Below, piece after piece: positions 1 through 15,546 of a stretch of 15,546 nucleotides of DNA. Position 1 is the stretch's first letter, and each line of letters opens with the position of its first letter. This DNA comes from a virus (Duplodnaviria > Heunggongvirae > Uroviricota > Caudoviricetes): the IMG/VR virus record IMGVR_UViG_2541047895_000009, positions 1 to 15,546 of that record, one strand, 5' to 3'. The notes beneath the pieces are model-generated. The model was not told the origin of the DNA, did not search any database, and saw only the letters and a list, made by a program, of their open reading frames with translations. A program made the position numbers and the translations under genes.

Positions 1-662
<662 letters not shown>

Positions 663-922: not shown

Positions 923-929
923 ATCGTCC

Positions 930-1325
930 TCACATTTCATAGGTAATGACATAAGTCAGATCGGCTGAACTCCACAGGCCCGCATCATCGTCGCGCCGGT
1001 AGTCATAGCCACTGGCCACCATACTGGTGATCAAATCTGACAGTGCCGGGACATCGCTCATCACCGGATAAATCCGGGACTCCATCCACGAATCCAGCTC
1101 TGAATCCGGCACCTGAGCAGGCAGGAAAACTTCAATATGCAGCTCCGCCTGCCAGGTATCGCTGTCCAGCTCTTCGCCCGTGTATTCAGCGCCGGTGAGA
1201 TAAACGGCAACTGCCGGAAAATCCGCCTCATCAAAAACAGCGGGGCGACCATCAAAAAGCGTCGCCCCGGTGTCATGCTTCTCCAGTGCATCCAGTACGG
1301 CTGCACGGAGTTCTGTATGTTTCAT
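930..1325 (-). CDS. U: tail terminator protein U
   Basis: 131 aa, near-identical to lambda gpU as recalled ([22 protein letters not shown]...LTYVITYEM). ATGA overlap with the Z stop. Confidence 0.93.
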
Positions 1326-1900
1326 CGCTTTATTACCATCCTCAGTTGATGCTGCAGCGCATAGCCCAGCTCTTTCGGAAGACGTTCACGCCGTATCCGC
1401 TCAATATTCTGTTTAAACGCCGTGGTCAGCGGCACTGCCATCGGGATTTTCACCACATCAATGGGGTAACGGTTTTTCCCGGCCACACGCTGCATGACAT
1501 GCCACCGGCCATTTTTCAGTTGCTGAATAAACGCGCCGGGAATACGACGGTTTCCCACCACAAGCACGCTGTCGCCACCTTTCAGGGATGAACGCTGCCC
1601 CTTTTTACGACGCCTGCGTCGGGACAGGACAACCCGCGCGTTACCCAGCCTGATTACGGGCAAATCCCCCCGGTTAACCTTGATTCTGGCCTGCGGATTT
1701 TTGACCGTGGCCCTTTTCAGCCTGGCCCTTTCCTTTACCAGTTTCCGGCGTACCTTTGTCTCACGGGCAACCTGTGACGCCGACTGCGATATCGCGGATG
1801 AAGCAACGCGGTTAATGGCCATTGCTGACGCACCAGGCACCGCCGTTCTGCTGATACGGCTGAGGTTTTCAACGGCCTGCTCAAGACCTTTTATGGCCAT
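1322..1900 (-). CDS. Z: tail completion protein Z
   Basis: 192 aa, matches lambda gpZ length and sequence (MAIKGLEQAVENLSRISRTAVPGA...). AGGAGGAGG ribosome-binding site upstream of the ATG at 1898-1900. Confidence 0.93.
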   Translation of the reverse strand: MAIKGLEQAVENLSRISRTAVPGASAMAINRVASSAISQSASQVARETKVRRKLVKERARLKRATVKNPQARIKVNRGDLPVIRLGNARVVLSRRRRRKKGQRSSLKGGDSVLVVGNRRIPGAFIQQLKNGRWHVMQRVAGKNRYPIDVVKIPMAVPLTTAFKQNIERIRRERLPKELGYALQHQLRMVIKR

Positions 1901-1911
1901 ACCTCCTCCTT

Positions 1912-2265
1912 TCAGCGACGACGGTTAACGGCAGGCGGCACGCCACGCCCAAGCCAGAGATGACAGCTTCCGCCATCATCCGGTGAAATCCGGTCTATCC
2001 AGAAGTTTTCCTCACCGATGGTCAGCGTGTCGCCGCGCCGCAGCTGCCGCACATCATCAGTCCGGACAAACAGGGACGGGCAGGAGCCTTCAACACGTAC
2101 GCCCTGTCCGGCATAGCTGATATTTTCAGGGTCATCAAAAACACCACGTATTACTGCGCCGGACTGCTCACCGGATGTCATGGTGGCTGACGTTCCCATG
2201 TACCCGCGTATCGTTTCATCGGCGCGGGCAATGGCAGCATCGAACAGGTTATCGAAATCAGCCAC
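1912..2265 (-). CDS. FII: head-tail joining protein FII
   Basis: 117 aa, MADFDNLFDAAIARADETIRGYMG..., GTG start preceded by GGGAGG. Matches lambda gpFII. Confidence 0.92.
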   Translation of the reverse strand: MADFDNLFDAAIARADETIRGYMGTSATMTSGEQSGAVIRGVFDDPENISYAGQGVRVEGSCPSLFVRTDDVRQLRRGDTLTIGEENFWIDRISPDDGGSCHLWLGRGVPPAVNRRR

Positions 2266-2276
2266 AGCGCCTCCCG

Positions 2277-2675
2277 TTATTGCATTCTGGCCAGGCCACG
2301 TTCTGTCATTTCGGCTGCCACACCGGCAGAGACACGAAATGCCGTTCCCGGCAGCACAAATGCCACAGGTTCATCCCGCGTGGCGTGAAGTGCATCAGTA
2401 TGCAGCGTCACCAGTGCCACGACCGTGGCCAGTTCAGCCGTATCCTGAATCACGGTGTCCGGCTGCGCTGATACCACCTCATTTTCATGCCCGGTCAGCA
2501 CATTTTCCGGGCCGGGAGGGGTATCCTGACCCGCAGCGTCATCCGTGTCATCAAGCTCCTCTTCCAGCTCTGCCACACGGAGCGCCAGTTCTTCTTTCGT
2601 CCCCGTCAGGCTGACATCACGGTTCAGTTGTTCACCCAGGGAGCGGAGACGGGCAATCAGTTCATCTTTCGTCAT
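2277..2675 (-). CDS. FI: DNA-packaging/head assembly protein FI
   Basis: 132 aa from MTKDELIARLRSLGEQLNRD... to ...ERGLARMQ. GGAGGAG ribosome-binding site before the ATG at 2673-2675. The longer 145-aa ORF in the track is an upstream extension. Confidence 0.92.
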   Translation of the reverse strand: MTKDELIARLRSLGEQLNRDVSLTGTKEELALRVAELEEELDDTDDAAGQDTPPGPENVLTGHENEVVSAQPDTVIQDTAELATVVALVTLHTDALHATRDEPVAFVLPGTAFRVSAGVAAEMTERGLARMQ

Positions 2676-2716
2676 GGACTCCTCCACAGAGAAACAATGG
2701 CCCCGAAGGGCCATGA

Positions 2717-3508
2717 TTACGCCAGTTGTACGGACACGAACTCATCAGGGTCAGCCAGCAGCATCAGCGGTGCTGACTGAATCATGGTGAACTCACGCGC
2801 CGGATCGCCGGTGGTCACCCAGTTTTTCGGGTAGCGGGCAGAGGCGTTAATGCCTTCGCGCTGTGCGTCCGCATCCTGAATGCAGCCATAGGTGCGCAGA
2901 CCGCGTGCCTGAGTGTTCCCCAGTACCATCGTGTTGTCCGGCAGGAAGTTCTTTTTGACGCCGTTTTCCACGTACTGTCCGGAATACACGACGATGGCCA
3001 CATCGCCATACATCCCCTTATAGGACACCGCTTTACCCAGGTCTTTTACCGCTGTCTCCAGCTCGGAATTAGAGCCGCGACGGGTATCCAGCTTCTCCCT
3101 GACAGCTTTGAAGGAACGGAACAGCGCCCAGCCTTTCGGATCAAACACGATGATATTCACCACACCGCTGGCATTCAGCGCGTAGGCTTCAATATCGTCG
3201 GTCGGGTCATACGTGGACTTGTCACGCTTGCTCCACTCCGTGCCGCCGGACTGTGTGATGTTGTTCGCCGCACTGCGGCCCATATCCACCTCAACCGGAT
3301 CGAAGGCTTCACCGGTCATGGTGTATTTGCCCCTGAGCACGGCAGAAACGGCCTGCATCTCTTCGACCTGAGCAATGGCCAGCTCTTCGTCTCGCATGTT
3401 CTGCAGGATGATGCGACGGCGGCGGTAAGCCGGGTCCGCCAGATTCTGTGGATCTTCATCCGGCAGGCGACGCAGAGTCATCTGCGGATTCACCTCATGC
3501 TTGGGTTA
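2717..3508 (-). pseudogene. E: major capsid protein E, C-terminal fragment (codons ~83-341), separated from its 5' part by the inserted element
   Basis: Translation (PKH)EVNPQMTLRRLPDEDPQ...DEFVSVQLA matches the lambda gpE C-terminal 259 residues. An in-frame TAA lies immediately upstream of the homology and there is no promoter-proximal start. Confidence 0.9.
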
Positions 3509-3512
3509 CATG
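3494..3512. other. left junction of inserted element (attL-like): ctcaTGCTTgggttacatg
   Basis: Lambda E homology runs to about 3502, then diverges. The sequence is an imperfect direct repeat of 14911-14930 (aagTGCTTcggcttgacata), sharing the TGCTT core. Confidence 0.6.
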
Positions 3513-3583
3513 AGTCAAATATGAAAGGATGTGAATGATTTTTAGTGATAATATGCTTCAGAATTACTTCCAAAACGAACCGT

Positions 3584-3604
3584 TGCAATACATCATGCAA
3601 TACA
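3584..3604 (+). repeat. tandem direct repeats TGCAATACA (2 copies), candidate arm-type integrase-binding sites on the attL side
   Basis: TGCAATACA at 3584-3592 and 3596-3604. The same motif recurs in the same orientation at 14766-14802 beside int. Confidence 0.4.
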
Positions 3605-3626
3605 CAGGATATGTAAGGAGTTATTA

Positions 3627-3812
3627 ATGACTAATTCAGTTGATGTTCAAACCCGTAGAGAAGAATTTGAGCAAGGATATCGAGATGGCTTTCGTTCGGT
3701 TCAGGGCAATGTTTTACCCCCAAAAGCTCCAAGAATTGTACTTGAAACGGGTTCAAAACCTTACGATCAAGGCCATGCTTACGGGGTCAGAGATGCTGGA
3801 GGCAAGCGGTAG
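3627..3812 (+). CDS. small hypothetical protein (61 aa), first gene of the AT-rich cargo operon
   Basis: ATG at 3627 preceded by AAGGAG at 6-nt spacing. The overlapping alternative ORF 3640-3834 has no ribosome-binding site. No recognisable domain. Confidence 0.4.
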   Translation: MTNSVDVQTRREEFEQGYRDGFRSVQGNVLPPKAPRIVLETGSKPYDQGHAYGVRDAGGKR

Positions 3813-3856
3813 CTATCACTGGTATAGTCCATAGAAAAAGTGTAAGGGGTCCTAAA

Positions 3857-4618
3857 ATGGATAATTTTCTCAATGAGTTTTCGTCGGATCAGGAACGAGC
3901 TAGACATTTAGAGAACTTATTAATTAAGGTTGCTCGAGGAGGACCTCGAGATAATAGTGAAAATTATATTTCTCTTAGATCGTACTTTATACAAAACTCT
4001 GTATTAAAACTGTTGCTTCCTGCATTCGTAAGAGAAAACAGAAGCCTAAAAAAATTTTGGGGATTCATACAGCAGAAGTTCCCAACATATAAAGAGCGCG
4101 AGTACTTCATCTCAACTGAATTCACACCGTTATTCGATTATTTCGAAGAGAATCATGCTACGCCTTCGGATGTTCACATAACTGACGGATTAAGAAGCTA
4201 TGATGAGTGTGGCGTGAATGAAGCTTGGGCAAAAGCTCTAGACAGAAGAAACAACGATCCTGAAGGGGCTATTACAGCATCTAGAACATTGCTTGAGACG
4301 GTTTGTAAACACATTCTTGATGATTTAAGTATTACTTATGATAGAAATCTAGACATGAGTGAACTTTATAAACTAACATCCAAAGCACTTAATTTGGCTC
4401 CAGATCAGCACGGAGAACAGATTTTTAAGCAGATACTTAAAGGTTGCTCATCTGTGGTAAATGGCCTTGGCAATTTACGTAATAAATATGGCGATGCTCA
4501 TGGCATAGGGAAAAAACCAATAAAACCTGCTGATCGACATGCTCTTTTAGCTGTTAATCTTGCAGGAAGCATGTCAGTTTTCCTCATTCAAACATGGCAA
4601 AACTTGTCAAACAAATAA
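3857..4618 (+). CDS. Abi_C-domain (abortive-infection C-terminal, HEPN-like) protein, 253 aa
   Basis: C-terminal motif block ...TASRTLLETVCKHILDDL...GCSSVVNGLGNLRNKYGDAHG...ADRHALLAVNLAGSMSVFL matches the Abi_C pattern, including an R-x6-H motif (RNKYGDAH). AAGGGG ribosome-binding site 7 nt before the ATG. Strongly AT-rich relative to flanking phage DNA. Confidence 0.75.
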   Translation: MDNFLNEFSSDQERARHLENLLIKVARGGPRDNSENYISLRSYFIQNSVLKLLLPAFVRENRSLKKFWGFIQQKFPTYKEREYFISTEFTPLFDYFEENHATPSDVHITDGLRSYDECGVNEAWAKALDRRNNDPEGAITASRTLLETVCKHILDDLSITYDRNLDMSELYKLTSKALNLAPDQHGEQIFKQILKGCSSVVNGLGNLRNKYGDAHGIGKKPIKPADRHALLAVNLAGSMSVFLIQTWQNLSNK

Positions 4619-4671
4619 TACCTAATTTTTAACCTCAACTGATTAAATTTCGGTCAAACATCCGTTAGTGA

Positions 4672-4712
4672 AATACAAGTTGCTATGTAAATACACACCT
4701 GCAACTTGTATT
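4672..4712. promoter_or_regulatory. perfect 12-bp inverted repeat aatacaagttgc-N17-gcaacttgtatt, about 54 nt downstream of the Abi_C gene
   Basis: Read directly from the sequence. No U-run follows on either strand, so it is not a canonical intrinsic terminator; an operator or RNA structure is possible. Confidence 0.45.
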
Positions 4713-5572
4713 ACCAACCAAGTTTAGCTCCCGATATTACTCATTTCCATTATTTTTCCTTGGCTAGCGCTTCGTCGAACATTTTTACGTGTTATCTTCA
4801 AGGTAGATGCTCGCAGAAATGATAGTACCACCGATTCGGCGTTGACCATAAGCCAGCAGAACAAGATCCCCTTGGCCGGTTGTATTCGTTACACCACCAA
4901 ATGCATAGAATGCCTTGTTATCAGTATCTTGCTTACTCGGCTACCCACAAGATTGTGGGGATAGCATTTGAGCAACGTAGCCTATCGTCACAGAAGCCCC
5001 TACTACAAACATCATATTACTGGACGCTATACGCGCTCCTGACATTCAGATAGACACAGCAACGCAAATCATTTGCAGCAGACCAGAGCTTTTACTTTCC
5101 ACAATAACTGGCACAAATACGAATTTCCCGACCCTCAGTAGAGAGCACAAGCGCATCTTTTCCAATATTCTGTTTCCTATGAAAAATACAGAATGTCAGC
5201 TCGCGAAATTTACTAGTATTCAGATACTTTTCTAATCGAACCTCTCAGTTTAATCGTCATCATTACCTTATAGCTCTGCATTTCGAGTTCCTACAGTAGA
5301 GTAAGTGTTCAGTAACCCAAGTTCAGGAGAAAGGAAACGATCATGCCATTTTCAGTCCCAAATAATGCTTTCCATTTCCTTTCTTTTCAGGTGGTGTTTT
5401 AAATAAAAACATAAAGTTACGGCGAAGAAGAACGGAAACGCCTTAAACCGGAAAATTTCCATAAATAGAGAAAAACTGCGCGCCTTCCGCCCCGTAACGC
5501 TCCGGATCACCGGAAAGGACCCGCTCAAAAAAAGCGGCCACTGACGTGATTGTTTATGTTCCATGAGCGACA

Positions 5573-5592
5573 AAACCGCCCGGAGGCGGTTT
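5573..5592 (-). terminator. putative intrinsic terminator after the I-like gene
   Basis: Stem aaaccgcc/ggcggttt with a 4-nt loop. On the minus strand the stem is followed by UUUUG, about 20 nt after the I-like stop. Confidence 0.4.
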
Positions 5593-5610
5593 CACATAAA
5601 ACATTCTGCA

Positions 5611-6258
5611 TCAGCGACCAATCACCACGATTTCACCACCATCACCTTCATCAGCTGTGCTGATCTCCTGAGATACCACACGTGACCCCACGCGCATTTC
5701 ACCGTACAGAACAGGCAGGACATTGCCCTGGGCAACCATGTTATCCAGTGACGAGAAATACGTGTTCTGCTTACCGTTATCCGTTGTCTGTGTACGGGGA
5801 GTTCTGGCTTTCGGTGCCAGCATCTGAGCCACACCGCCAAGGATCATACTGGCCCCCGCACTATACATTCCTGTAATTGCTGCCGCTCCTAGCCAACCAG
5901 CGGGGTTCCACCACGCCACCGCAATCAGCGCCGCCCCCAGCACGGTCTGAAACACACCGCCACTTTTAGCGCCAGCAAGACGCGGTACGATGTGGATCAC
6001 AGCACCATTCGCCAGCGGCTCATTAAGACGGGCTGATAATTCATTTTCGCCTGCATCCCGCCCGGCAATCCGTACCTGATACCAACCGTCGCTCAGTTTC
6101 TGACGAAACGACGGTAGCTGTGTGGACAGAGCTCGGATGGCTTCAGCCCCCGTTTTTACACGAAGGTCGATGCGGCGGCCGAATCGTTGCAAATCCCCGT
6201 AAAGGCAGATTCGTGCCATGCCCGATGACGCCAGAGGGAGTGTGTGCGTAGTTGCCAT
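5611..6258 (-). CDS. lambda gpI-like tail assembly protein (215 aa)
   Basis: N- and C-termini (MATTHTLPLASSGMARICLYGDLQRFGRRIDLRVKTGAEAIRAL... and ...KQNTYFSSLDNMVAQGNVLPVLYGEMRVGSRVVSQEISTADEGDGG) match lambda gpI as recalled, with a divergent central segment. It is not followed by a J gene but by a hairpin and ORF-free DNA. Confidence 0.8.
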   Translation of the reverse strand: MATTHTLPLASSGMARICLYGDLQRFGRRIDLRVKTGAEAIRALSTQLPSFRQKLSDGWYQVRIAGRDAGENELSARLNEPLANGAVIHIVPRLAGAKSGGVFQTVLGAALIAVAWWNPAGWLGAAAITGMYSAGASMILGGVAQMLAPKARTPRTQTTDNGKQNTYFSSLDNMVAQGNVLPVLYGEMRVGSRVVSQEISTADEGDGGEIVVIGR

Positions 6259-6298
6259 TTGTCGGTATACCTCTCTCGTTTGCTCTGTTGTTCAGAAA

Positions 6299-6682
6299 TT
6301 AGCAGATCAACTTATAGCGTCCCTTCCGAGCATTGCGGCGTACACGTTCAATCTTGAGGCATAGCGCCGCATCTGGCTTTTTTGGGACTGGTACACGGCA
6401 ATATTCAGAAGCGCGAGGAATATTATTTATCCAGTCAATCACTTCGCTTAAATACCAGGCCTTACGCCCTTCCGTAACCTGCACACGCTCCGGGAACTCT
6501 CCACGGGCCTCAAGGTTTAGCAGTGTACGACGACTCAGGGTTGTAAGTTCCATCACCTGATTCATATCAACAAGACGCTCGCTTAAACGCATTTTGTCAG
6601 CGATAGCTTTTAATTCCTCTACAGCTGGATTTGGGTACATAATTTCGGCAATTGGCTTAAGGTCATTGTAATGATTCTGCAT
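6299..6682 (-). CDS. AlpA-family (MerR/Xis-type helix-turn-helix) DNA-binding protein with an N-terminal extension, 127 aa
   Basis: Core ...MELTTLSRRTLLNLEARGEFPERVQVTEGRKAWYLSEVIDWI fits the AlpA pattern. AAGGGGGA ribosome-binding site 5 nt before the ATG at 6680-6682. Confidence 0.6.
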   Translation of the reverse strand: MQNHYNDLKPIAEIMYPNPAVEELKAIADKMRLSERLVDMNQVMELTTLSRRTLLNLEARGEFPERVQVTEGRKAWYLSEVIDWINNIPRASEYCRVPVPKKPDAALCLKIERVRRNARKGRYKLIC

Positions 6683-6693
6683 TGTATCCCCCT

Positions 6694-7035
6694 TTACACA
6701 CGAGCCAGCGGCTGAACAGAAATACCTGAGCCAACAAACGCTGCAACCTTTACTGACAGTTCTTTTACAGACTCAGGCCAGTTCAGAGCATCAACATTTA
6801 AGACACCTGTCTTATAGACCTGAGCCTGTGTTTTTTTCGCGGTGTCGATTTGTACAGCGGATACATAAACCGCTTTACCTACGCTCGTACCATCCCATAC
6901 CACCAGTGCACCTGTTGCATCTTCCTGCATCAGTGGCGTAAATGCAGGAATTACCCCTTTATTAGCTGAAAATATCCCCAGCGTAGTAACCAGTGCTTCA
7001 GTGCCAGCCATGAGTTCAGTGTAATGAGTAGCCAT
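6694..7035 (-). CDS. gpD-like head decoration protein (113 aa), divergent from prophage D
   Basis: ALVVWDGTSVGKAVYVSAV...YKTGVLNVDALNWP aligns with the lambda gpD motif [19 protein letters not shown]...[23 protein letters not shown] ribosome-binding site; translationally adjacent to the E-like gene. Confidence 0.75.
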   Translation of the reverse strand: MATHYTELMAGTEALVTTLGIFSANKGVIPAFTPLMQEDATGALVVWDGTSVGKAVYVSAVQIDTAKKTQAQVYKTGVLNVDALNWPESVKELSVKVAAFVGSGISVQPLARV

Positions 7036-7044
7036 TGCTCCCCC

Positions 7045-8085
7045 TTAGCCAATGCGAACGGTAACAAAACGATTGATGCGGGCCGGTATTGGCTGTGGTG
7101 CTGAATGTGTCTGCACATATTCAATAGCCGGATCACCAGGCACAATATAGTTTTTCGGTGCAAGTTCGGCTTTAGTCAGCCCCATTCGGATTAGCTCCGG
7201 ATCCTGAATACCGCCATAGGCGACAATCCCCTGAAGAGCCGTATTGCCAAGCACCATCAAATCAGGATCAAGGAAATGTTTTTCAGTTCCGTCCTCGTCG
7301 GTATAACGCCCGCTGTAAACAACAATCGCAACATCGCCCATATACCCTTTAAAACTCACCGAATCACCAAGGTCTTTAAGGGCCGTTTCCAGTTCGGAAT
7401 TAGAACCACGACGGGTATCCAGAGCCTCTTTTATCGCTCTGAATGAACGGTATTTCTTCCATACATTACCGCCCATAATGATGATATTAGTGACGCCCTC
7501 ACTAAATTCTGCGTAGTTCTCAATATCATCATTTGGATCAAAAGTTTCTTTATCCTTACCTGACCACTCAGCACCGCCAGACTGAGTGATGATATTTTGT
7601 GGTTTAATATTCCAGTCCAGCTCATAACGTTCAATACCATCGCCCTCAATGATATTTTTCCCCGTTGTGATTGCCTGAACGGCAAGCCATTCAATACGTG
7701 CACGAATAGCTTTAGCTTGATTTACAATCGCCTGTTTAACTTTAATATTACGCGCCCCAAAAGCATTGTATTGCTCAGGTGATACACCAGCAGGGCGCAC
7801 AGCTAACTTATTTGGATCAATGCTGCTTTTCGGCTTCATATAGCCTGGACGAATTGTTTTTGATTCGTACCCTTCGTCACGTGAAACTTTACTACCCACC
7901 ATAGGAGAACAAAACGCTGCAATTGGGATATTTGGATCGTCGATTGTATCAAGAATAATATCGCGCGATTCAAACATTACCGAGCGAGTAAAAAACAAAC
8001 GGGTAAACAACGCATTTAGTTGTTTTTGTACATCTACAGCATTAACCACCTGTACAAGCTGGGTAGGCGAATATAAATCAACCAT
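7045..8085 (-). CDS. lambda E-like major capsid protein (347 aa), divergent second copy encoded within the inserted element
   Basis: Clear homology along its length to lambda gpE (GYMKPK vs GYVKPK; ITQSGGAEWSGKDKETFDPNDDIENYA vs ITQSGGTEWSKRDKSTYDPTDDIEAYA; LDTRRGSNSELETALKDLG...GDVAIVVYSG). Start taken at the ATG at 8083-8085, 6 nt after AAAGAGG; the 404-aa track ORF is an upstream extension. AT-richer than the prophage E. Confidence 0.85.
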   Translation of the reverse strand: MVDLYSPTQLVQVVNAVDVQKQLNALFTRLFFTRSVMFESRDIILDTIDDPNIPIAAFCSPMVGSKVSRDEGYESKTIRPGYMKPKSSIDPNKLAVRPAGVSPEQYNAFGARNIKVKQAIVNQAKAIRARIEWLAVQAITTGKNIIEGDGIERYELDWNIKPQNIITQSGGAEWSGKDKETFDPNDDIENYAEFSEGVTNIIIMGGNVWKKYRSFRAIKEALDTRRGSNSELETALKDLGDSVSFKGYMGDVAIVVYSGRYTDEDGTEKHFLDPDLMVLGNTALQGIVAYGGIQDPELIRMGLTKAELAPKNYIVPGDPAIEYVQTHSAPQPIPARINRFVTVRIG

Positions 8086-8259
8086 ACGCATCCTCTTTGC
8101 ATTCATTAAAAATAATTGTGGATATATGCTATCACCGATATTTGTCATGCGAATACATGCAACCGAGTGCAATGTTGTATAAAGTTTTGGGATGACAACT
8201 TCAGCGCGGATAATTAGTGTTAATATCTTCACTCCCTTTGGTCGGGATTTATGTAGCAT

Positions 8260-8294
8260 GCCGGAAAATTTATTTTTTTCCGGCCTTTTTTATT
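8260..8294 (+). terminator. GC-stem hairpin plus T-run (gccggaaaa-N7-ttttccggc CTTTTTTATT), terminator-like on the plus strand
   Basis: Read from sequence between ssb and the E-like gene. The U-run follows the stem only on the plus strand, so it would stop antisense or convergent transcription rather than ssb read-through. Confidence 0.35.
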
Positions 8295-8302
8295 GGCAAT
8301 AT

Positions 8303-8752
8303 TTAAAACGGAATATCATCTCCCCATTGCTCATTATCTCCCACTGGTGGATGGCTTCCTTGCTGATCTGCCTGTTGTTTTGCTCTGTTCAGTGCGTCAG
8401 TAGCCTGCCCCTGTTGGCCTTTTTTGCCGCCCGGTCGCACCGTTCGCGCACTGATTACGCTGTCTGCGATAACCTGCCAGCCCTGCCGCGTTTCACCGTT
8501 CTGTCCAGTCCACTGACTCACCTGCATGTTACCCGCCACGCTCAGGAGTTCGCCTTTGTGATGCTTTGCCAGCGCGTCGGCTTGTCTGCCAAACGCCAGA
8601 ACAGATAACCACATCGTCGCCTGACCGTCATCCGATTGGCTGCAGGGCAGTGATACCGCCATACGCGCCAGCGTCATGGGGGTGCCCTTGCTGGTCTGTT
8701 TTGTCTGCGGGGCGTCCACCAGCCGCCCGTAAGCTGCTATTTGCGCCGTCAT
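8303..8752 (-). CDS. ssb: single-stranded DNA-binding protein (SSB)
   Basis: 149 aa. OB-fold-like N-terminal region, Gly/Gln-rich linker and the hallmark acidic C-terminal tail ...WGDDIPF. ATGA overlap with the upstream ORF. Confidence 0.85.
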   Translation of the reverse strand: MTAQIAAYGRLVDAPQTKQTSKGTPMTLARMAVSLPCSQSDDGQATMWLSVLAFGRQADALAKHHKGELLSVAGNMQVSQWTGQNGETRQGWQVIADSVISARTVRPGGKKGQQGQATDALNRAKQQADQQGSHPPVGDNEQWGDDIPF

Positions 8753-9006
8753 GCTGCCTGCTCTCCGGACTTAATATTGATGGTTGTCACTTCCTCCGCT
8801 TCGGCAATCTCCCGTTCGGTCAGCGTGGCAAAGTTTGCAGCCGCCGTTGTCATGAATGCGCTTATCAGTTCGGGATGTGCTTTCGCGTATCCTTCCCCGG
8901 CGTTGCGGTCTATTGCCTTAATCGCCACCCTTAGCCAGTGTTCAGCCATATCAAGGGCGCGGTAATGTGGCTTTATATGTTTGTTCAGTTTTCCTGATGT
9001 GTGCAT
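8749..9006 (-). CDS. hypothetical protein (85 aa), between origin and ssb
   Basis: ORF translationally coupled to ssb (ATGA overlap). No recognisable motif. Confidence 0.45.
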   Translation of the reverse strand: MHTSGKLNKHIKPHYRALDMAEHWLRVAIKAIDRNAGEGYAKAHPELISAFMTTAAANFATLTEREIAEAEEVTTINIKSGEQAA

Positions 9007-9051
9007 TTTTATTTTTACCCCCTCGTTTAAAAAGTTTTTTGTGCACCACCA

Positions 9052-9283
9052 CCTTGTCTACCTTGTCTACCTGATTAGTTATCAGGCCAGTAATGGCGCG
9101 GGTTTCAGGGAGGTAGACAGCCCCAAATAGCTGTCTACCTCATCTCTACCCGTCTCCTTACCTGTCTACAAAAATGGGTAGATAAGGTAGATAACAGGTA
9201 GACAGTGAAAAATAGTTATCTACCTGCATTAATACATTGAAATAAAAGTATTTTCTTTCAGTCAGGTAGACAAGGTAGATAAC
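9052..9283. repeat. iteron array, putative replication origin: at least 11 copies of GGTAGA(C/T)A / T(G/A)TCTACC in both orientations
   Basis: Copies include cttgtctacc x2 (9053-9071), gaggtagacag, gctgtctacc, cctgtctaca, gggtagataaggtagataacaggtagacag, ttatctacc and caggtagacaaggtagataacc. Lies immediately downstream of the primase gene in an AT-rich non-coding gap. Confidence 0.7.
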
Positions 9284-9295
9284 CATTGCCATTTT

Positions 9296-11047
9296 TTATA
9301 AAAACGCATCGCAATCATCAGTAGTCGTTGCGTTGGTCTGCGTGACTCCCTTAACTTTTCGCGTAATATATTCATATCCGTAAACTTTCGCCGCTGACCT
9401 CATAGCCTTTCCGAACTCATTCACGCTCAAACATTTCCCCTTTCCTGTGTATGCCATGAAGGCCATATAGACACGGTAAAGGCTGTTTCTGGTCGTGTAC
9501 TTCACGGAGTCACCACCACCGCCCATCATTAGCCCACGAGCTTCCTCCAGAAACTCAAGCGCCGCGCAAAGCTCAACAACTGGATCCGTTTGCTGCTTTA
9601 TTGCCAGAGCTTCATCACCGTCACGCTGTTCCAGTAGTAAAGCCCTTGCCTTTTCAGGGTCAGCAAAGTTAGCCAGCAAGCGGCGGATAATTACGGGGAT
9701 TTCTGCCGCTATCTTTTCCGGTAATTCCTTGTCTTTTTCGTCCTCCCTTACAATGTTGTCGAACCGGAAAATCACCCGACGGCGTGACACACCTCCGGCC
9801 CGTTCGGTAAAGATCATCGGGTCGTTATTGGTTGCCAGTACCACCGCCCTTATTATCGTCGTGAATCGCTTCTCATATTTCGGATTGATTTCAACGGGAT
9901 CGCCTCCCGTGATTTTCTTGATGCCCGTGCCTTCCCCCGTATATTTCGGCTGATCGGCAAGGACGATAAGACGACTCCCGACAACCTGCGCGCGCCCTCC
10001 TGCATCATCGAGTGATGTCATCTCTGCGCTTACGGTGTTCTGTTTGCCTGCAAGCAGGGTGGCAATATGGGTAAATGTACTCTTACCGCTTCCCCCGTCT
10101 CCGGTGGCCTCAATGAACATCTGCCAGTCGTAGCGGTTCGCCATAATCATGTATAACGCGGCACATATACGCATCATCTTGCGCGGGTCTTTTCCTGCAG
10201 CATGTTCAAGCCATTTATGGAAATTTGGCGCATTATCGCGGATGTTTTCCCCTGCTACTGGTGGCGTGTACTCAATACCATTGTGCGTGGTGCTCCAGTG
10301 CTCCGGCGAGTGCGGAGAAAATTCCCCCGTTTTCAGATTAAGCACACCATTAGTGAACGGTAGCAAATCACCGGACGGCTCCCCCATGGGGGCGGCAATA
10401 ACTTTTAACGCTTCCACGGCGTTATTGATTACGCGTTTGCTGAACGTGGCCCTGTGCTCTGAATAGATCGCCACCATTTCGCGGCTCAGCTCCATTGTGC
10501 TGACCGGACACCATACCCCGCCGCGCCATACGTGGACGATTTCACTTTCTGCATGAACACAAACACCATCAAAGCGATCGGCAAGTAGTTGTGCCCGCTC
10601 ACTGTCTGCCATCTGTGAAAGTTGCGCCTTTTGCTTCGTCGGAAGATTAAGCACCAGGCTTTCCCCACGCTCGCATTCCTCTTTGAGTCGCGGCAACTGG
10701 TCGGATAAATCCACAGGGCTGGTGTCAGTAATCCCCGCGTATTCGTGTACGGTCTTCACTCCAGCCACAGCCAGTAACGTAACAATCTGCGTCATGCTGT
10801 GCTCTGTGATATGTCCTGCGCGGTAAACACGCACACACTGACGATCTTCATCAATGATCCGGTAATCGGTGATGTTTTTCAGTTGCTCATCAGCCAGCAC
10901 GACAGGCGGCACATCGTCGGCGGCAATATGTTTACCCGCCCATTCCTGCCACTCTTTCGCATGGCTCCACGCATCACTACCTGCAAAGATGATTACCTCT
11001 GTCAGTCTGTCGCGTGGCTGTTTTTTTAAGTTCGGTGCCAGTTTCAT
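9296..11047 (-). CDS. P4-alpha-type primase/replicase (D5-N / phage-plasmid primase C-terminal family), 583 aa
   Basis: Walker A P-loop EATGDGGSGKSTF plus the typical satellite/PICI primase-helicase layout. ATGA overlap with the upstream 99-aa ORF. Confidence 0.88.
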   Translation of the reverse strand: MKLAPNLKKQPRDRLTEVIIFAGSDAWSHAKEWQEWAGKHIAADDVPPVVLADEQLKNITDYRIIDEDRQCVRVYRAGHITEHSMTQIVTLLAVAGVKTVHEYAGITDTSPVDLSDQLPRLKEECERGESLVLNLPTKQKAQLSQMADSERAQLLADRFDGVCVHAESEIVHVWRGGVWCPVSTMELSREMVAIYSEHRATFSKRVINNAVEALKVIAAPMGEPSGDLLPFTNGVLNLKTGEFSPHSPEHWSTTHNGIEYTPPVAGENIRDNAPNFHKWLEHAAGKDPRKMMRICAALYMIMANRYDWQMFIEATGDGGSGKSTFTHIATLLAGKQNTVSAEMTSLDDAGGRAQVVGSRLIVLADQPKYTGEGTGIKKITGGDPVEINPKYEKRFTTIIRAVVLATNNDPMIFTERAGGVSRRRVIFRFDNIVREDEKDKELPEKIAAEIPVIIRRLLANFADPEKARALLLEQRDGDEALAIKQQTDPVVELCAALEFLEEARGLMMGGGGDSVKYTTRNSLYRVYMAFMAYTGKGKCLSVNEFGKAMRSAAKVYGYEYITRKVKGVTQTNATTTDDCDAFL

Positions 11048-11343
11048 TTTTTGCCCCTGAATGCGTTAATCATGCTTTTCATTTTCTGGATGTTTCCCCG
11101 CGCTTTTTCCCTGCTGGTGGGCTTACTGCGGGGTGCGGCATATACCAGGGAAAAATCACGCCGGAACTGATAAACAGGCATCACGCAGTCATAGCTATAC
11201 CCCTCACGGCGGTAAGTGATGCGCCGTTCTGCCACGCCTTTAATCGTTACCGTGCCGCCGTATTTATCGCGGTAAATATCGCCGTTCATAAATTCAGGCC
11301 GAGCGGGGCCGCTGGCAATAAAGCCAGAATTTTTCATTTCCAT
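11044..11343 (-). CDS. hypothetical protein (99 aa), translationally coupled to the primase
   Basis: ORF with ATG at 11341-11343; its stop overlaps the primase start. No motif recognised. Confidence 0.55.
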   Translation of the reverse strand: MEMKNSGFIASGPARPEFMNGDIYRDKYGGTVTIKGVAERRITYRREGYSYDCVMPVYQFRRDFSLVYAAPRSKPTSREKARGNIQKMKSMINAFRGKK

Positions 11344-11360
11344 ATTATTTATTCTTCGAC

Positions 11361-11582
11361 TTAACTCGACTTATTTGATAGCAGGGCACTATTTATTGCG
11401 TCATTGAGTTTTTCTGCTGCTTCATCAATAAGTGACAACAGGCCATAAGCAATATTTGCATCTTCATTGTCATTTATGCAATCAAGCCACATATTTAATA
11501 TTGCTTTTGCTGAATTATTTAAAGTTAATGAACTCTCTGCACATGCTAACAATTTAAAAAAGACTTCTCGTTCTGTATTCAT
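11361..11582 (-). CDS. hypothetical small protein (73 aa), AT-rich
   Basis: ORF in a tightly packed same-strand array upstream of the primase. Confidence 0.45.
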   Translation of the reverse strand: MNTEREVFFKLLACAESSLTLNNSAKAILNMWLDCINDNEDANIAYGLLSLIDEAAEKLNDAINSALLSNKSS

Positions 11583-11774
11583 TTAATCCCCCACCAGCTT
11601 ACTTTCTTCCTCAATCAGGAAACTAGCGACACTTCCCGAAAGGCGCGCCAGTAGGCTCGCCAGCGCGGATATATCAGCATCTGTAATTTTGTTCGGGTAT
11701 ACCTCAAGAAGGCGGCAAATAATCTCTGTTTGGTGCGCACGTTCAGCGGCTTCGTGTAATGTGATTTCCTGCAT
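11583..11774 (-). CDS. hypothetical small protein (63 aa)
   Basis: ORF abutting neighbours with start/stop overlaps, suggesting an operon. Confidence 0.45.
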   Translation of the reverse strand: MQEITLHEAAERAHQTEIICRLLEVYPNKITDADISALASLLARLSGSVASFLIEEESKLVGD

Positions 11775-11959
11775 TAATGCACCTCTTTTAATTCATACAC
11801 TGCTGAAATAATGACTTGTGATAAGCCATATTCTGATGATTCGCTTCTCACCGCAGCAATAGCCGTCTGAACATTAACAGCCTTCACGTTCTGAGCGATA
11901 CCAATTGTGTGGCCTCGTGGGTTAACAGCTCGGGCAAATACACGGAAGGTTTTAAGCAC
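11774..11959 (-). CDS. hypothetical small protein (61 aa), GTG start
   Basis: GTG at 11957-11959 preceded by AGGAGG at about 6-nt spacing. Overlaps the stop of the upstream ORF. Confidence 0.45.
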   Translation of the reverse strand: MLKTFRVFARAVNPRGHTIGIAQNVKAVNVQTAIAAVRSESSEYGLSQVIISAVYELKEVH

Positions 11960-12155
11960 GGCGCACCTCCTGACGAATACGGGCAGCGAATACCATCACG
12001 CAGCCAGTTGGGGATTGCTGGCGGGCTTCCTGTTCGCTGATGGCCTCGATGGTAATCACGCGCGGTTGTGCCGTACTCAAGGCGATAAAACGCCAGATGT
12101 ATTTATTCAGGTTGTGCGAGTTCCGCCCTTGCGGGTGTGTGGTATGATTTCTCAT
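11952..12155 (-). CDS. hypothetical small protein (67 aa), first gene of the leftward regulatory operon
   Basis: ATG at 12153-12155 preceded by GAGGT. The longer track ORF (to 12215) would run through the upstream inverted-repeat region. Confidence 0.45.
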   Translation of the reverse strand: MRNHTTHPQGRNSHNLNKYIWRFIALSTAQPRVITIEAISEQEARQQSPTGCVMVFAARIRQEVRRA

Positions 12156-12190
12156 AGCTACCTCGATACTGTTGCTATCGTTGGTGGTTA

Positions 12191-12292
12191 AACGCCCTGT
12201 ATGTGTTGCGAGCACTGCAGGGCGTTGTTCCAGAGCAATAAAACATGATAAGGTGTGTACCTATCAAGAAGCATACTAAGCAATAGGTACAT
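12191..12292. promoter_or_regulatory. divergent promoter/operator region with two inverted repeats
   Basis: AACGCCCTG-N18-CAGGGCGTT (12191-12226) and GTGTACCTAT-N18-ATAGGTACAT (12255-12292), located between the divergently oriented small-ORF operon and the RHH gene. Confidence 0.4.
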
Positions 12293-12294
12293 AC

Positions 12295-12489
12295 ATGTCA
12301 ACTATCATTCAGCGCGATAAACAGCCGAAAGGTGCTGGTAAGGCACCGGCATTTCAGATCCGTATCAACCCGGAACTAAAAGAACAAATGGTTAGTGCGG
12401 CTGCAAAAGAAGGAATGAGTTTGGCTAATTGGCTTAAAGAACTAGCAAGAGCAGAACTACGCAAACAAGGTATTGAACCTAGAGGTTAA
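12295..12489 (+). CDS. Arc/ribbon-helix-helix-type small DNA-binding protein (64 aa), candidate repressor or antitoxin
   Basis: KAPAFQIRINPELKEQMVSAAAKEGMSLANWLKELARAELRK fits the RHH beta-strand plus two helices pattern. No obvious Shine-Dalgarno; the second inverted repeat abuts its start. Confidence 0.6.
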   Translation: MSTIIQRDKQPKGAGKAPAFQIRINPELKEQMVSAAAKEGMSLANWLKELARAELRKQGIEPRG

Positions 12490-12513
12490 GACTTTTAAAA
12501 GGATCTGTGAGAG

Positions 12514-13239
12514 ATGCAAAATCTAAAACGAATAAGTGAATATAATTTAACAGACAATCCTATCCCACATTATTTCCCTCATGATAGTAGATTCCTGTCT
12601 CTACTTGGGAAATTTTCGTTCCGACTTGAAGATCTAATAGTATTTCACTCATTTGTTTATCATACATATAACATAAATCTTAAGGAGATACAAAAAATTG
12701 CAGATAACACTCCCCAATATAATCCAGACTTATTAGACGATGAAGAGCATGAAATGGCCTTGATTTCTCAAGCCAGACATAGAGAGAGGGTTGGTTATTA
12801 TGATGATCTTAATAGAAAAGCCTCATTTTTTGCCAATGACAGTGTCGTAATTAATCTTTGGGCTATTATTGAACAGTTTAGTACCATGGCATACTCTTTG
12901 CTAGAAGCAATTATTAAAGAAATACCTGAAAATCAAGTTAAAGTTCCATATACATGGGATAAATTAAAAAAGAAATACTTAAGTTATGGTATTGACCTCT
13001 CCCAACTTGATTCTTACGATGTCATTAACGAAACTAGGGTTTTAAACAACAAAATCAAACACCTTTATATTGTCGATGAAAACCTTGCCTCTTTTCCTTT
13101 TTTCAAGGACAAAGAGAACAAGTCATTATTAGGAATGGAATATAGGCTTCAAGATTATGTTATTGGAACTCATAAGTTCATCGGGCATCTTTTAGAGGAT
13201 TGCTCCATAAAATTAGGAAATAAGGCAAACATGATTTAA
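12514..13239 (+). CDS. hypothetical protein (241 aa), very AT-rich cargo gene downstream of the RHH gene
   Basis: Long uninterrupted ORF 24 nt after the RHH gene. No motif I can assign with confidence. Confidence 0.65.
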   Translation: MQNLKRISEYNLTDNPIPHYFPHDSRFLSLLGKFSFRLEDLIVFHSFVYHTYNINLKEIQKIADNTPQYNPDLLDDEEHEMALISQARHRERVGYYDDLNRKASFFANDSVVINLWAIIEQFSTMAYSLLEAIIKEIPENQVKVPYTWDKLKKKYLSYGIDLSQLDSYDVINETRVLNNKIKHLYIVDENLASFPFFKDKENKSLLGMEYRLQDYVIGTHKFIGHLLEDCSIKLGNKANMI

Positions 13240-13243
13240 ATTA

Positions 13244-13270
13244 ATTAGGTAGGTAATAAACCTACCTAAT
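13244..13270. terminator. perfect 10-bp inverted repeat attaggtagg-taataaa-cctacctaat between convergent genes
   Basis: Read from sequence; sits between the 241-aa gene (+) and alpA (-). AT-rich flanks on both sides, so possibly a bidirectional terminator. Confidence 0.45.
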
Positions 13271-13279
13271 TGAAATGAT

Positions 13280-13513
13280 TTACTTATTTAAGTACCATTC
13301 CCCACGAATCCACGCCTGCACCTCCGAAAGGCGATATGCTACGGCAGTGGCACCTATTTTAATTCGCTTTGGAAACTTTCCTTCTTTCTCTAACTTCCAT
13401 CGAGTGCTATTAGCAAGAGTAGTTAACTCACGGCATTCTTTCTCACGGATCATTCGGTCAATGTTAGGAATGTATTCCAGACCCTTTTTATCAACAATTG
13501 CCATTTTTTTCAT
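13280..13513 (-). CDS. alpA: AlpA-family excisionase/transcriptional regulator (77 aa)
   Basis: ...CRELTTLANSTRWKLEKEGKFPKRIKIGATAVAYRLSEVQAWI fits the AlpA helix-turn-helix pattern. Immediately downstream of int on the same strand. Confidence 0.8.
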   Translation of the reverse strand: MKKMAIVDKKGLEYIPNIDRMIREKECRELTTLANSTRWKLEKEGKFPKRIKIGATAVAYRLSEVQAWIRGEWYLNK

Positions 13514-13514
13514 G

Positions 13515-14750
13515 TTAACCAGCCTTTTGTTTGAGGATTGTCACTTTTGAATCAGCAGCTGCGATGCTATTGAGATATGTAGTCCAGAGTTCCAGAGCAT
13601 CCAGTTTTTTAGCCATAAACTTACTCCGGTTGTAAACACCTGCCACGCCAGGTAGCGCATGGCCTAACAGTTGTTCTACTACATAAAATTCAACACCGAG
13701 ATCACTTAGATGAGTAGATAGCGTTCTTCTAAGGTCGTGTAGTGACCATTGTTTTTCATGGCCCAAACGTTTACCGATTTTCCCCCCAATCTTGCTTACG
13801 CTTTCTCTAATTCGCAGACTTCCCAGCACATAACCAGTATGTTTTGTCTCTTCGTGAACATCCGTTACCCACTGTCGTAGAATTTCAGGTACTGGTCTGA
13901 CGATTTCAACACCAGTTTTTGAGTGATCTTTTGGTACAGTCCAAACCCAACTTTCGAGATCCCATTCGCTCCATTCTGATAATCGGGCTTCACTCATTCG
14001 ACATCCAAATACTGTACAAAGCACAAACATTTTTCGCGTGTATTCAGACATTAGTTTTAAATCAGGCTCGACAAAAATTGCCTTCCAGAGCTGGCCGAGT
14101 TCGGCTTCATCCAGAACCCGATCCCGCTTACCTGCAATCTGCCCCACATCACTCATGCGCAAATCCTTTAAAGCATCACACGTCGCGTACTGGCGTACCC
14201 GACAAAAACGAAGAGCTAATTTAGTGTCAGAAAAAACATACGCCGCCATAACTGGTGCATTACTTTTAATTCGGTCAAAACAGTCCAGCCATTCATATAG
14301 GTGAGTGTCATTTACGGGCAAATGACCGATATAGGGAAAGATATGCTTTCGAAATCTGCCAAGCGTTACAGCATGAGTTTTACGACGCACCTTACAGTAA
14401 TTTTCATACCAGTAATTTAGTGCATCCTCCACTGTGACCGGCTTTAAGCGTTCTTCAGCCTGAATCTTAATCTGGATACGCGGATCACGTTTGTCAGCCA
14501 ACCAAGCACGGCACTCGTCGCGCTTTTCCCTTGCCTGTTTGAGTGACATATCAGGATATTTACCCAACGTTAGCCAGACCGGAGCAGCCCGGCCACCTGC
14601 TAACCTGTAGAAGAAAACAAAGCTCACAGCCCCCTTGGTACTCACACGAATAGAAAGCCCCTTTCCATCAGCAATGGTGATCTGCTTTTCTCTGGGTTTC
14701 CCCAGATATCCTTTAAGTGCTTTGTCGCTCAGTTTGTTCTCGCCAGCCAT
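13515..14750 (-). CDS. int: P4-type tyrosine integrase (411 aa)
   Basis: N-terminal arm-binding-type domain (LSDKALKGYLGKP...ADGKGLSIRVSTKGAVSFVFFYRLAGG...WLTLGKYPDMSLKQAREKRDE) and a catalytic domain with R...HDLRRT...LLGH...Y. Start taken at the ATG at 14748-14750; the 455-aa track ORF is an upstream extension. Ends about 160 bp inside the right junction. Confidence 0.9.
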   Translation of the reverse strand: MAGENKLSDKALKGYLGKPREKQITIADGKGLSIRVSTKGAVSFVFFYRLAGGRAAPVWLTLGKYPDMSLKQAREKRDECRAWLADKRDPRIQIKIQAEERLKPVTVEDALNYWYENYCKVRRKTHAVTLGRFRKHIFPYIGHLPVNDTHLYEWLDCFDRIKSNAPVMAAYVFSDTKLALRFCRVRQYATCDALKDLRMSDVGQIAGKRDRVLDEAELGQLWKAIFVEPDLKLMSEYTRKMFVLCTVFGCRMSEARLSEWSEWDLESWVWTVPKDHSKTGVEIVRPVPEILRQWVTDVHEETKHTGYVLGSLRIRESVSKIGGKIGKRLGHEKQWSLHDLRRTLSTHLSDLGVEFYVVEQLLGHALPGVAGVYNRSKFMAKKLDALELWTTYLNSIAAADSKVTILKQKAG

Positions 14751-14765
14751 TTTTAGCCCCAAAAA

Positions 14766-14802
14766 GCAATACAAGCTGCAATACAGAGATGATTGCAACA
14801 CA
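14766..14802 (+). repeat. direct repeats GCAATACA x2 plus variant TGCAACACA in the int upstream region, candidate arm-type Int sites
   Basis: gcaataca at 14766-14773, tgcaataca at 14777-14785, tgcaacaca at 14794-14802; same motif and orientation as 3584-3604 at the other end. Confidence 0.4.
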
Positions 14803-14882
14803 CAGATAACGAGGAAAATCCAGTGAAAGCGCCAGATAAACTTATTCTTTATTATCAAAAGATTAAGTGTAAAAACCAGCAA

Positions 14883-15158
14883 CTACACGAAAGCCTCAGA
14901 AAGCCATGCTAAGTGCTTCGGCTTGACATATCCCGGCGTAAATTCAGAGGTGGAGCCGCCACGGGAGCGGATAACCTCACCGGAAACAATCGGCGAAACG
15001 TACAGCGCCATGTTTACCAGCCCCGGAATTTGTGAGAGATAGACTTTCTCCGTGGTGAAGGGATAGCTCTCACGGAAAAAGAGACGCAGAAACAGCGGAT
15101 CAAACTTAAATTTCTGCTCATTTGCCGCCAGCAGCTGGGCGGTTGTGTACATCGACAT
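14883..15158 (-). pseudogene. E: major capsid protein E, N-terminal fragment (codons 1-82) fused to 9 element-derived codons and a stop
   Basis: MSMYTTAQLLAANEQKFKFDPLFLRL...SEFTPGYVKPKH matches the lambda gpE N-terminus, then LAWLSEAFV and stop from element DNA. Confidence 0.9.
14905..14930. other. right junction of inserted element (attR-like): gctaagTGCTTcggcttgacata
   Basis: Lambda E homology begins at about 14914. Imperfect direct repeat of 3494-3512 sharing the TGCTT core. Confidence 0.6.
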
Positions 15159-15171
15159 AAAAAAATCCCGT

Positions 15172-15192
15172 AAAAAAAGCCGCAAAGGCGGC
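15172..15192 (-). terminator. D-E intercistronic hairpin (gccgc-ctttg-cggc) followed by a U7 run on the transcribed strand
   Basis: On the minus strand the RNA reads GCCGCCUUUGCGGC UUUUUUU ACGGGAUUUUUUU AUG. Attenuator/terminator-like structure between D and E. Confidence 0.4.
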
Positions 15193-15213
15193 CTTTAGTG
15201 ATGAAGGGTCAGG

Positions 15214-15546
15214 TTAAACGATGCTGATTGCCGTTCCGGCAAACGCGGTCCGTTTTTTCGTCTCGTCGCTGGCAGCATCCGGCCAGAGCACATCCTCATA
15301 ACGGAACGTGCCGGACTTGTAGAACGTCAGCGTGGTGCTGGTCTGGTCAGCAGCAACCGCCAGAATGCCAACAGCAGCACCGTCAGTGGTGCCATCCCAC
15401 GCAACCAGCTTACGGGTGGAGGTATCCGGCATCAGCGGGGTCATTGCAGGCGTTTTCGCACTCAATCCGCCGGGCGCGGTTGCGGTATGAGCCGGGTCAC
15501 TGTTGCCCAGCGGCTGGTAATGGGTAAAGGTTTCTTTGCTCGTCAT
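15214..15546 (-). CDS. D: head decoration protein D
   Basis: 110 aa, [27 protein letters not shown]...[11 protein letters not shown], matches lambda gpD. The start codon is the last three bases of the window. Confidence 0.93.

Follow-up and report, generated by a model that had tools for sequence, protein, structure and literature searches.

We analysed a 15,546-nucleotide stretch of DNA, hereafter the window, which corresponds to positions 1 to 15,546 of IMG/VR virus record IMGVR_UViG_2541047895_000009. Its flanks belong to the head and tail module of a lambdoid prophage, in the order nohD-A-W-B-C-D, then E, then FI-FII-Z-U-V, and between them lies an element of 11,416 bp (about 3498-14918) that carries the genes of a phage satellite and interrupts E, the major capsid gene of this helper prophage. 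On the minus strand the window encodes D (15546..15214), the two pieces of E, FI, FII, Z, U and a V gene that is cut by an IS3 element. An earlier prediction, made from the sequence alone and here called the original prediction, had described the satellite as one of unclassified architecture and had not recorded that it sits inside the prophage capsid gene. The features that define the junctions are as follows, PICI standing for phage-inducible chromosomal island and HE-PICI for helper-embedded PICI.

14914..15158, minus strand: N-terminal fragment of helper major capsid gene E (Phage_cap_E positions 1-78; pseudogene in RefSeq)
14914..14918, minus strand: attL core AAGCA, junction of the N-terminal helper E fragment and the satellite (end of E. 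coli 042 homology; published identity block 'aagca')
14766..14785, minus strand: doubled TGTATTGC arm motif of the int-proximal attP arm (motif and geometry as published for HE-PICIs)
3585..3604, minus strand: doubled TGTATTGC arm motif of the distal attP arm (near edge about 83 bp from the core centre)
3498..3502, minus strand: attR core AAGCA, junction of the satellite and the C-terminal helper E fragment (rejoined halves restore the frame)
2717..3497, minus strand: C-terminal fragment of helper major capsid gene E (Phage_cap_E positions 94-328; pseudogene in RefSeq)

In a Pfam search the pieces of E on either side of the element matched Phage_cap_E profile positions 1-78 (at 15185..14883) and 94-328 (at 3493..2717). 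Because the coverage of the profile is split in this way, the 11.4 kb between the two pieces represents an insertion into E, located at about codon 80 of the profile in a late gene of the prophage. The satellite ends at the outer edges of AAGCA, a direct repeat of 5 bp that lies at 3498-3502 and 14914-14918, and the boundaries of 3498 and 14918 proposed in the original prediction are therefore those of the att cores. Assignment of AAGCA as the att core comes from alignment to the intact E of E. coli 042, in which homology stops at the repeat (junction ...GCCGAAGCA|TGAAG). As it stands, the N-terminal fragment of E meets a stop 10 codons past the core and the C-terminal fragment has no start. 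When the halves 15185..14914 and 3497..2717 are rejoined at the core they form an uninterrupted reading frame of the lambda E type. Since attP brings no sequence to replace E, integration disrupts the target gene, which stays broken for as long as the satellite is in place and is restored on rejoining the halves. The int, alpA and primase genes are co-oriented with the interrupted late gene, all lying on the minus strand like D, E, FI, FII, Z and U. The same int-attL-E junction is present in 174 of 5426 complete E. coli genomes.

The att arms identify the family to which the element belongs. Five matches to the TGTATTGC motif are found in the window (0.69 expected), and the doubled, co-oriented copies on the two arms have their near edges about 83 and 129 bp from the core, which compares with published distances of 81 +/- 2 and 132 +/- 2. 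A doubled motif on both arms at fixed spacing is specific to HE-PICIs according to Tommasini, Mageeney and Williams 2023 (PMC10111431), who published the HE-PICIs of site E:Phage_cap_E:80. The supplement of that paper lists the present copy as Eco8487.11.E_Phage_cap_E_80 (CP027550.1/1601914-1590499, identity block 'aagca'). The satellite DNA of the window is 100% identical to that in CP027550 and 99.9-100% identical in two other strains. We conclude with high confidence that the element is a satellite of lambdoid phages, packaged by way of cos, and that it belongs to the E:Phage_cap_E:80 group of HE-PICIs. Its type has been known since 2023, and the window provides one more annotated example.

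The HE-PICI type element, Eco567.11capE of E. coli NRG857c, is likewise inserted at codon 80 of Phage_cap_E (PMC10111431), and the two elements share the insertion point in helper E, co-orientation with it, doubled TGTATTGC arms, gene order and the position of cos. Their integrases are near-identical; the int genes differ at 9 of 1236 nucleotides. Placement of the window integrase in the capE subclade comes from this nucleotide identity and the group listing in the supplement. A block running from an 85-amino-acid open reading frame (ORF) through the genes for a single-stranded DNA-binding protein (SSB), for capsid and decoration homologues (E' and D') and for a helix-turn-helix (HTH) protein is 97.8% identical in nucleotide sequence, and both elements have the same two cargo slots. 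By contrast, the primase modules have diverged, with patches of only about 75% identity, and the cargo differs, being HEPN and DUF262 genes and others in Eco567.11capE but an AbiJ-like gene and a ribbon-helix-helix (RHH) plus 241-amino-acid orphan pair in the window. The window element has an extra 740-bp segment (K'-I) between the HTH gene and cos, and its att identity block is 5 bp rather than 10 bp. The window helper is truncated and lies at another chromosomal site than the helper of Eco567.11capE.

We used profile searches against Pfam, PHROGs, NCBIfam, PADLOC and PDB sequences to assign the genes of the element, and blastp for comparisons with EcCICFT073, the prototype E. coli PICI, which is located in the chromosome of E. 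coli CFT073. The core genes are:

13515..14750, minus strand: tyrosine integrase (int), HE-PICI E:Phage_cap_E:80 subclade (Pfam Arm-DNA-bind_3 and Phage_integrase)
13280..13513, minus strand: AlpA excisionase/activator (Pfam Phage_AlpA, E = 6.5e-15; 54% identity to EcCICFT073 AlpA)
11361..12155, minus strand: early operon of an Icd-like protein (12155..11952) and three small conserved ORFs (phage_ICD_like, PHROGs)
9296..11343, minus strand: replication genes for a DUF4222 protein (11343..11044) and a P4-family primase/helicase, pri (11047..9296) (Pfam, TIGR01613)
9055..9281, no strand assigned: replication origin, nine AGGTAGAYA iterons directly 3' of pri (exact repeat count)
8303..9006, minus strand: 85-amino-acid conserved ORF (9006..8749) and SSB (8752..8303) (Pfam SSB; phrog_1231)
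7045..8085, minus strand: E', major capsid protein homologue of the satellite itself, 346 amino acids (Pfam Phage_cap_E, E = 4.5e-41)
6694..7035, minus strand: D', the satellite's own lambda D-like head decoration protein homologue, 113 amino acids (Pfam HDPD, E = 4e-15)
6299..6682, minus strand: 127-amino-acid AlpA-family winged-helix (HTH) protein of the late zone (Pfam Phage_AlpA; phrog_2790)

These searches bear out much of the original prediction. The integrase, alpA, small regulatory ORFs, alpha-type primase, iteron origin and ssb are all where it had placed them, and the profile matches agree with its picture of a satellite of the P4 and PICI world that carries capsid-gene homologues. 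The Icd-like protein is assigned by NCBIfam phage_ICD_like (E = 1.5e-18) and is 92% identical to its EcCICFT073 counterpart; PHROG matches in the early operon are to 6196, 3672, 1478 and 2196. The primase/helicase matches Pfam D5_N, DUF5906 and Pox_D5 as well as TIGR01613 and is 80% identical to EcCICFT073 Pri, and the 85-amino-acid ORF and SSB are 80% and 69% identical to the EcCICFT073 proteins. Nine exact AGGTAGAYA iterons compare with 0.10 expected, a count of nine being reached in 0 of 200 shuffles, and their position agrees with that of the mapped PICI origin (PMC6092414). Overall, the element has an int-alpA module, pri with the origin immediately 3' and a size in the PICI range (about 10-15 kb), and it has no lysis genes. 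The int, alpA, pri, ssb, E', D' and HTH genes are intact with ratios of nonsynonymous to synonymous polymorphism (pN/pS) below 1. For the HTH protein, which matches AlpA in the PDB (8c3t, E = 1.6e-10), pN/pS is 0.07-0.16; the values suggest that the HTH gene, E' and D' are maintained, with small substitution counts for E' and D'.

The predicted lack of terminase, portal, protease and tail-shaft genes was also correct. Among the coding sequences of the element, searches of Pfam and PHROGs, with blastp to RppA, gave no match to terminase, portal, protease, Psu, Ogr/Delta or Rpp, and none of the small ORFs proved to be a sid, psu, delta or ppi homologue, which would have made the element a conventional satellite. 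The head module is reduced to the capsid and decoration homologues, with no portal, protease/scaffold, connector or terS gene among the element genes, and its tail-related content is the K'-I fragment; there is no complete head or tail module.

The claim of a layout unlike that of any known satellite did not survive comparison with EcCICFT073 (Fillol-Salom et al. 2018, 2019). The two elements have the same gene order: int, alpA, a divergent small gene, an Icd-like gene and small ORFs, followed by DUF4222, pri, the origin, the 85-amino-acid ORF, ssb and the capsid and decoration homologues. The encoded proteins are 45% to 92% identical by blastp, and both satellites have a lambdoid helper and use cos packaging. 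EcCICFT073 shares not only the order but also the capsid (c1499) and decoration (c1500) homologues, which were described in 2018 (PMC6092414), and the claim of an unclassified architecture is therefore unsupported; the HE-PICI family itself was published in 2023 with this copy in the supplement. Thus, the prediction taken as a whole was right about a phage satellite and wrong about the novelty of its architecture. EcCICFT073 differs in its location, which is in the chromosome and not within its helper, and in having RppA and a lambda-like cosN with no lambda-type cosB, whereas the window element has no RppA homologue, a lambda-type cosB, a divergent cosN and a second AlpA-family gene in the late zone.

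E' is 42% identical to helper E and 55% identical to c1499, and D' is 38% identical to helper D and 54% identical to c1500. No phage E protein among 50,697 phage genomes exceeds 42% identity to E'. With higher identity to the PICI protein than to helper E, and no close phage relative in the collection, E' and D' belong to an old lineage shared with EcCICFT073 and are not a recent capture. At the position equivalent to att (window 7815-7875), E' reads AAGCCGAAAAGCAGC and helper E reads AAGCCGAAGCATGAAG; the two are alike to the left of the core and unlike to the right. This pattern agrees with the published view that the capsid gene of the satellite itself would not serve it as an integration site.

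The packaging signal of the element lies between the K'-I segment and the AT-rich end next to the C-terminal E fragment:

5373..5524, minus strand: lambda-type cos, with cosQ, cosN (5492..5481, GGGCGGAAGGCG) and cosB (R3, I1, R2, R1) (similarity to helper cos)

A search for an exact lambda cosN in the element failed, and cos was located by its similarity to the helper cos instead. Compared with the cos that the helper prophage has upstream of nohD, the satellite cos shows 87% identity and conserves R3, R2 and R1; its identity to the cos of NRG857c 11capE is 92%. Within it, cosQ and cosB are kept and the cohesive-end sequence diverges: cosN differs from that of the helper at 5 of 12 positions, compared with about 13% in the flanks. 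The type element shows the same, its cosN (GGGCGTCAGGCG) differing from that of its own helper (GGGCGGCGACCT) at 5 of 12 positions. We did not meet this difference between satellite and helper in the parts of the Results and Discussion of PMC10111431 cited here.

This arrangement is the reverse of that in Rpp-type PICIs, in which a lambda-like cosN occurs without a lambda-type cosB, as seen in EcCICFT073. No protein of the element matched EcCICFT073 RppA by blastp. At the sequence level the 127-amino-acid HTH protein matched AlpA alone in the PDB, with no Rpp-named chain up to E = 1, in a collection for which the presence of an Rpp structure is unconfirmed. Not all PICIs have Rpp. Because the window element lacks an Rpp homologue, the terminase small subunit (TerS) of the helper would be expected to recognize the satellite cosB directly, by binding R3, R2 and R1. 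A sister satellite in E. coli N1420, 98% identical, lacks the K'-I block and has its own terminase small subunit gene, a lambda-type cosN and an unlike sequence in the place of cosB (about 7231-7975 of the compared N1420 sequence). The packaging module therefore appears to be exchanged as a unit in this group of satellites.

The insertion into E, the disruption of E and its restorability, and the intact integration, replication and cos modules can all be read directly from the DNA, and together with what is known of the family they suggest the following cycle. A tyrosine integrase of the P4/PICI clade has placed the satellite at about codon 80 of helper E, and precise excision at the AAGCA core restores the gene. 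On helper induction, the composite of helper and satellite would, as in other members of the family, excise from the chromosome and replicate. In NRG857c, the one strain for which such data are reported, quantitative PCR and deep sequencing detected precise excision of the satellite, later than the composite was excised and replicated (PMC10111431). Q-dependent late transcription of the helper would then read through Nu1 to D, across the N-terminal part of E and on into int and alpA, and because these two genes would be reached by late read-through the satellite would excise late. It would replicate from its own pri-iteron origin with its own SSB, and its concatemers would be cut at the lambda-type cos and packaged by the helper terminase, as both the sequence and the precedent of EcCICFT073 suggest. 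Packaging would probably be in full-size heads built by the helper and holding about four genome copies (4 x 11.4 = 45.7 kb); EcCICFT073 DNA is packaged as phage-sized DNA (PMC6092414).

Several observations weigh against this cycle or against its operation in the present copy. A consensus scan for promoters and terminators gave counts no higher than in shuffled sequence and so neither supports nor refutes read-through. With satellite cosN GGGCGGAAGGCG set against helper GGGCGGCGACCT, cleavage by the helper terminase is not assured. No Rfam match to a C4/isrK immunity RNA was obtained even at a permissive threshold. The authors of PMC10111431 were unable to recover virions from any HE-PICI or to show that one is transferred, and packaging and transfer of HE-PICIs are for this reason given here as expectations. 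Finally, the local helper is cut by IS3 at the tail tube gene V (window 1-654) and at the replication gene P. It no longer has its tail-tip genes or its early and immunity region, and retains part of its integrase; without the early region and the tail genes beyond V it cannot mobilize this copy. Because of this truncation, the copy is probably stranded in its genome until another lambdoid phage arrives.

The presence of E' and D' raises the alternative that the satellite is partly capsid-forming. In such a scheme E' and D' would build a shell on the portal and scaffold/protease of the helper, with packaging by helper terminase, and by knocking out helper E in cis the satellite would give its own shell the advantage. 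If this were true, head production would be tilted towards the satellite, which would fall between the classical PICIs, with their wholly stolen capsids, and the capsid-forming PICIs (cfPICIs), and the divergence of cosN, seen in two independent pairs of satellite and helper, could be part of the same parting of satellite packaging from that of the helper. The scheme fits the full length of E' and D', their conservation as a pair across PICIs at 55% and 54% identity, the distance of E' from all phage records (none above 42% identity), the pN/pS below 1, on few substitutions, and the fact that helper E is unavailable before excision. However, deletion of c1499 or c1500 from EcCICFT073 left interference unchanged, the DNA that EcCICFT073 packages is phage-sized (PMC6092414), and knockout of a PICI capsid gene is reported as tolerated (PMC10111431). 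Nor does the element have any of the defining genes of cfPICIs, which are those for portal, protease, connector and terS. We therefore consider a partly capsid-forming satellite unlikely. Within the HE-PICI interpretation, E' and D' are most likely backup or alternative shell subunits; we found no later literature on their function in HE-PICIs.

Two other systems in which satellites encode capsid protein homologues were compared. The cfPICIs (Alqurainy et al. 2023) resemble the window element in encoding an HK97-fold major capsid protein homologue, but they also encode a portal, protease/scaffold, head-tail connectors and terS, taking tails alone from the helper. None of those genes is present in the window element, and we rejected membership of the cfPICIs on the grounds that capsid and decoration homologues alone do not make a full head module. 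Ccm of SaPIbov5 (Carpena et al. 2016, PMC5052747) is likewise a homologue of the helper major capsid protein in a cos-packaged satellite, but its system is Gram-positive, it makes assembly switch to small capsids, and there is no sequence relationship; no size redirection was seen with the capsid homologues of E. coli PICIs (PMC6092414).

The late zone of the element also holds tail DNA of lambdoid origin:

5560..6299, minus strand: captured lambdoid tail segment made up of K (3' end), the I homologue (intact, 6258..5611) and the I-J intergenic hairpin (nucleotide identity)

The I homologue matches Pfam Lambda_tail_I, and at the nucleotide level the segment as a whole (5560-6299) is 88-90% identical to K-I as found in lambdoid phages. 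Identity stops exactly at 6299, directly after the stop codon of the 127-amino-acid HTH gene. The junction between this segment and the HTH gene occurs in 3 of 5426 complete E. coli genomes. RefSeq annotates the K remnant of the segment as a pseudogene. Lambdoid K-I identity, a truncated K and a rare junction together fit the 'late gene capture' of PMC10111431, and by these comparisons the K'-I segment is a recent, passive and lineage-specific capture of helper late DNA. The original prediction had treated the E-like, D-like, AlpA-like and I-like genes as one block. All four are real, with matches to Phage_cap_E, HDPD, the AlpA family and Lambda_tail_I, but they are not one unit, since E', D' and the HTH gene belong to the block that is 97.8% conserved in the family, whereas I is a capture confined to three genomes. 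At about 4791-4994 of the window (minus strand), in the AT-rich region downstream of cos, lies the decayed C-terminus of a second, divergent tail assembly protein I with an in-frame stop, which may be the trace of an earlier capture event.

Truncated K beside I, the second I-like remnant and a decayed surrounding prophage with IS3 in V and in P are what would be expected if the locus were an inert rearranged fragment, that is, a mosaic of lambdoid head and tail pieces that recombination and IS activity had brought together with an integrase and that had no mobility of its own. Such a fragment would not be expected to have exact boundaries with an att core and arm motifs, the identical insertion point in 174 genomes, or intact int, alpA, pri, ssb, E', D' and HTH genes with pN/pS below 1. 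The 99.9-100% identity of the satellite DNA in CP027550 and two other strains and the precise excision of the type element demonstrated experimentally (PMC10111431) also speak against it. We regard an immobile fragment, which the original prediction had named as its own possible undoing, as very improbable: it fails for the family and applies in part to the surroundings, where IS3 has truncated the helper.

We rejected as very improbable a satellite of the P4 type, remodelling the helper capsid by means of external scaffolds of the Sid/Psu type. In its favour are a primase of the P4 family (TIGR01613), the presence of AlpA and of an Icd-like gene, and an integrase within the wider P4/PICI clade, but no coding sequence matches Psu, Sid or Ogr/Delta (Pfam, PHROGs), Rfam finds no C4/isrK RNA, the helper is lambdoid and not P2-like, and the gene order is that of EcCICFT073 and not P4. 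P4 itself resembles the window element in its primase family and related integrase clade, in having AlpA and variable defence cargo, and in being packaged from cos; it differs in having sid, psu, delta, epsilon and the CI RNA, which the window element lacks, in its P2-like helper, and in targeting a tRNA gene instead of a prophage gene.

HE-PICIs, established in 2023, represent satellite parasitism of a helper in cis, in which the coat gene of the helper is held hostage until excision and the satellite would ride on helper replication and late transcription. What the present copy adds is small: a clean late-gene capture in the K'-I segment, two cargo slots with abortive-infection and orphan genes, and a cos in which cosQ and cosB are shared with the helper and the cohesive-end sequence is not.

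The two AT-rich loci that the original prediction had seen at the ends of the element were confirmed by measurement, the GC fraction being 0.38-0.41 at 3501-5500 and 0.32-0.36 at 12501-13500, compared with 0.45-0.56 elsewhere. Both AT-rich ends hold cargo on the plus strand:

12295..13239, plus strand: variable cargo slot 1, a 64-amino-acid RHH protein and a 241-amino-acid orphan (weak HicB and YlcI-YnfO-like matches; GC 0.32-0.36)
3627..4618, plus strand: variable cargo slot 2, a 61-amino-acid ORF and an AbiJ-like abortive-infection protein (3857-4618) (Abi_C, AbiJ)

The AbiJ-like protein matches Pfam Abi_C (E = 1.7e-23) and PADLOC AbiJ (E = 2.4e-22). In slot 1, the 241-amino-acid ORF starts 25 bp after the RHH ORF, making a two-gene unit. 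The 241-amino-acid protein has no credible match in Pfam, PHROGs, PADLOC, NCBIfam or PDB sequences, and it is possible that the unit is a toxin-antitoxin or defence pair. Slot 1 is filled by other genes in NRG857c and CFT073, and slot 2 holds HEPN and DUF262 genes in NRG857c. Judged from these comparisons the AT-rich ends are slots for swappable cargo, with putative roles in defence.

Outside the satellite, gene Z (window 1314-1854) is present as another allele than in CP027550.1, the rest of the window being identical. It shows clustered mismatches and an unalignable patch of 105 bp versus 61 bp, with a net length difference of 45 bp (15 amino acids), and the difference looks like a small recombination patch. 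The window therefore derives from a very close relative and not from that exact record.

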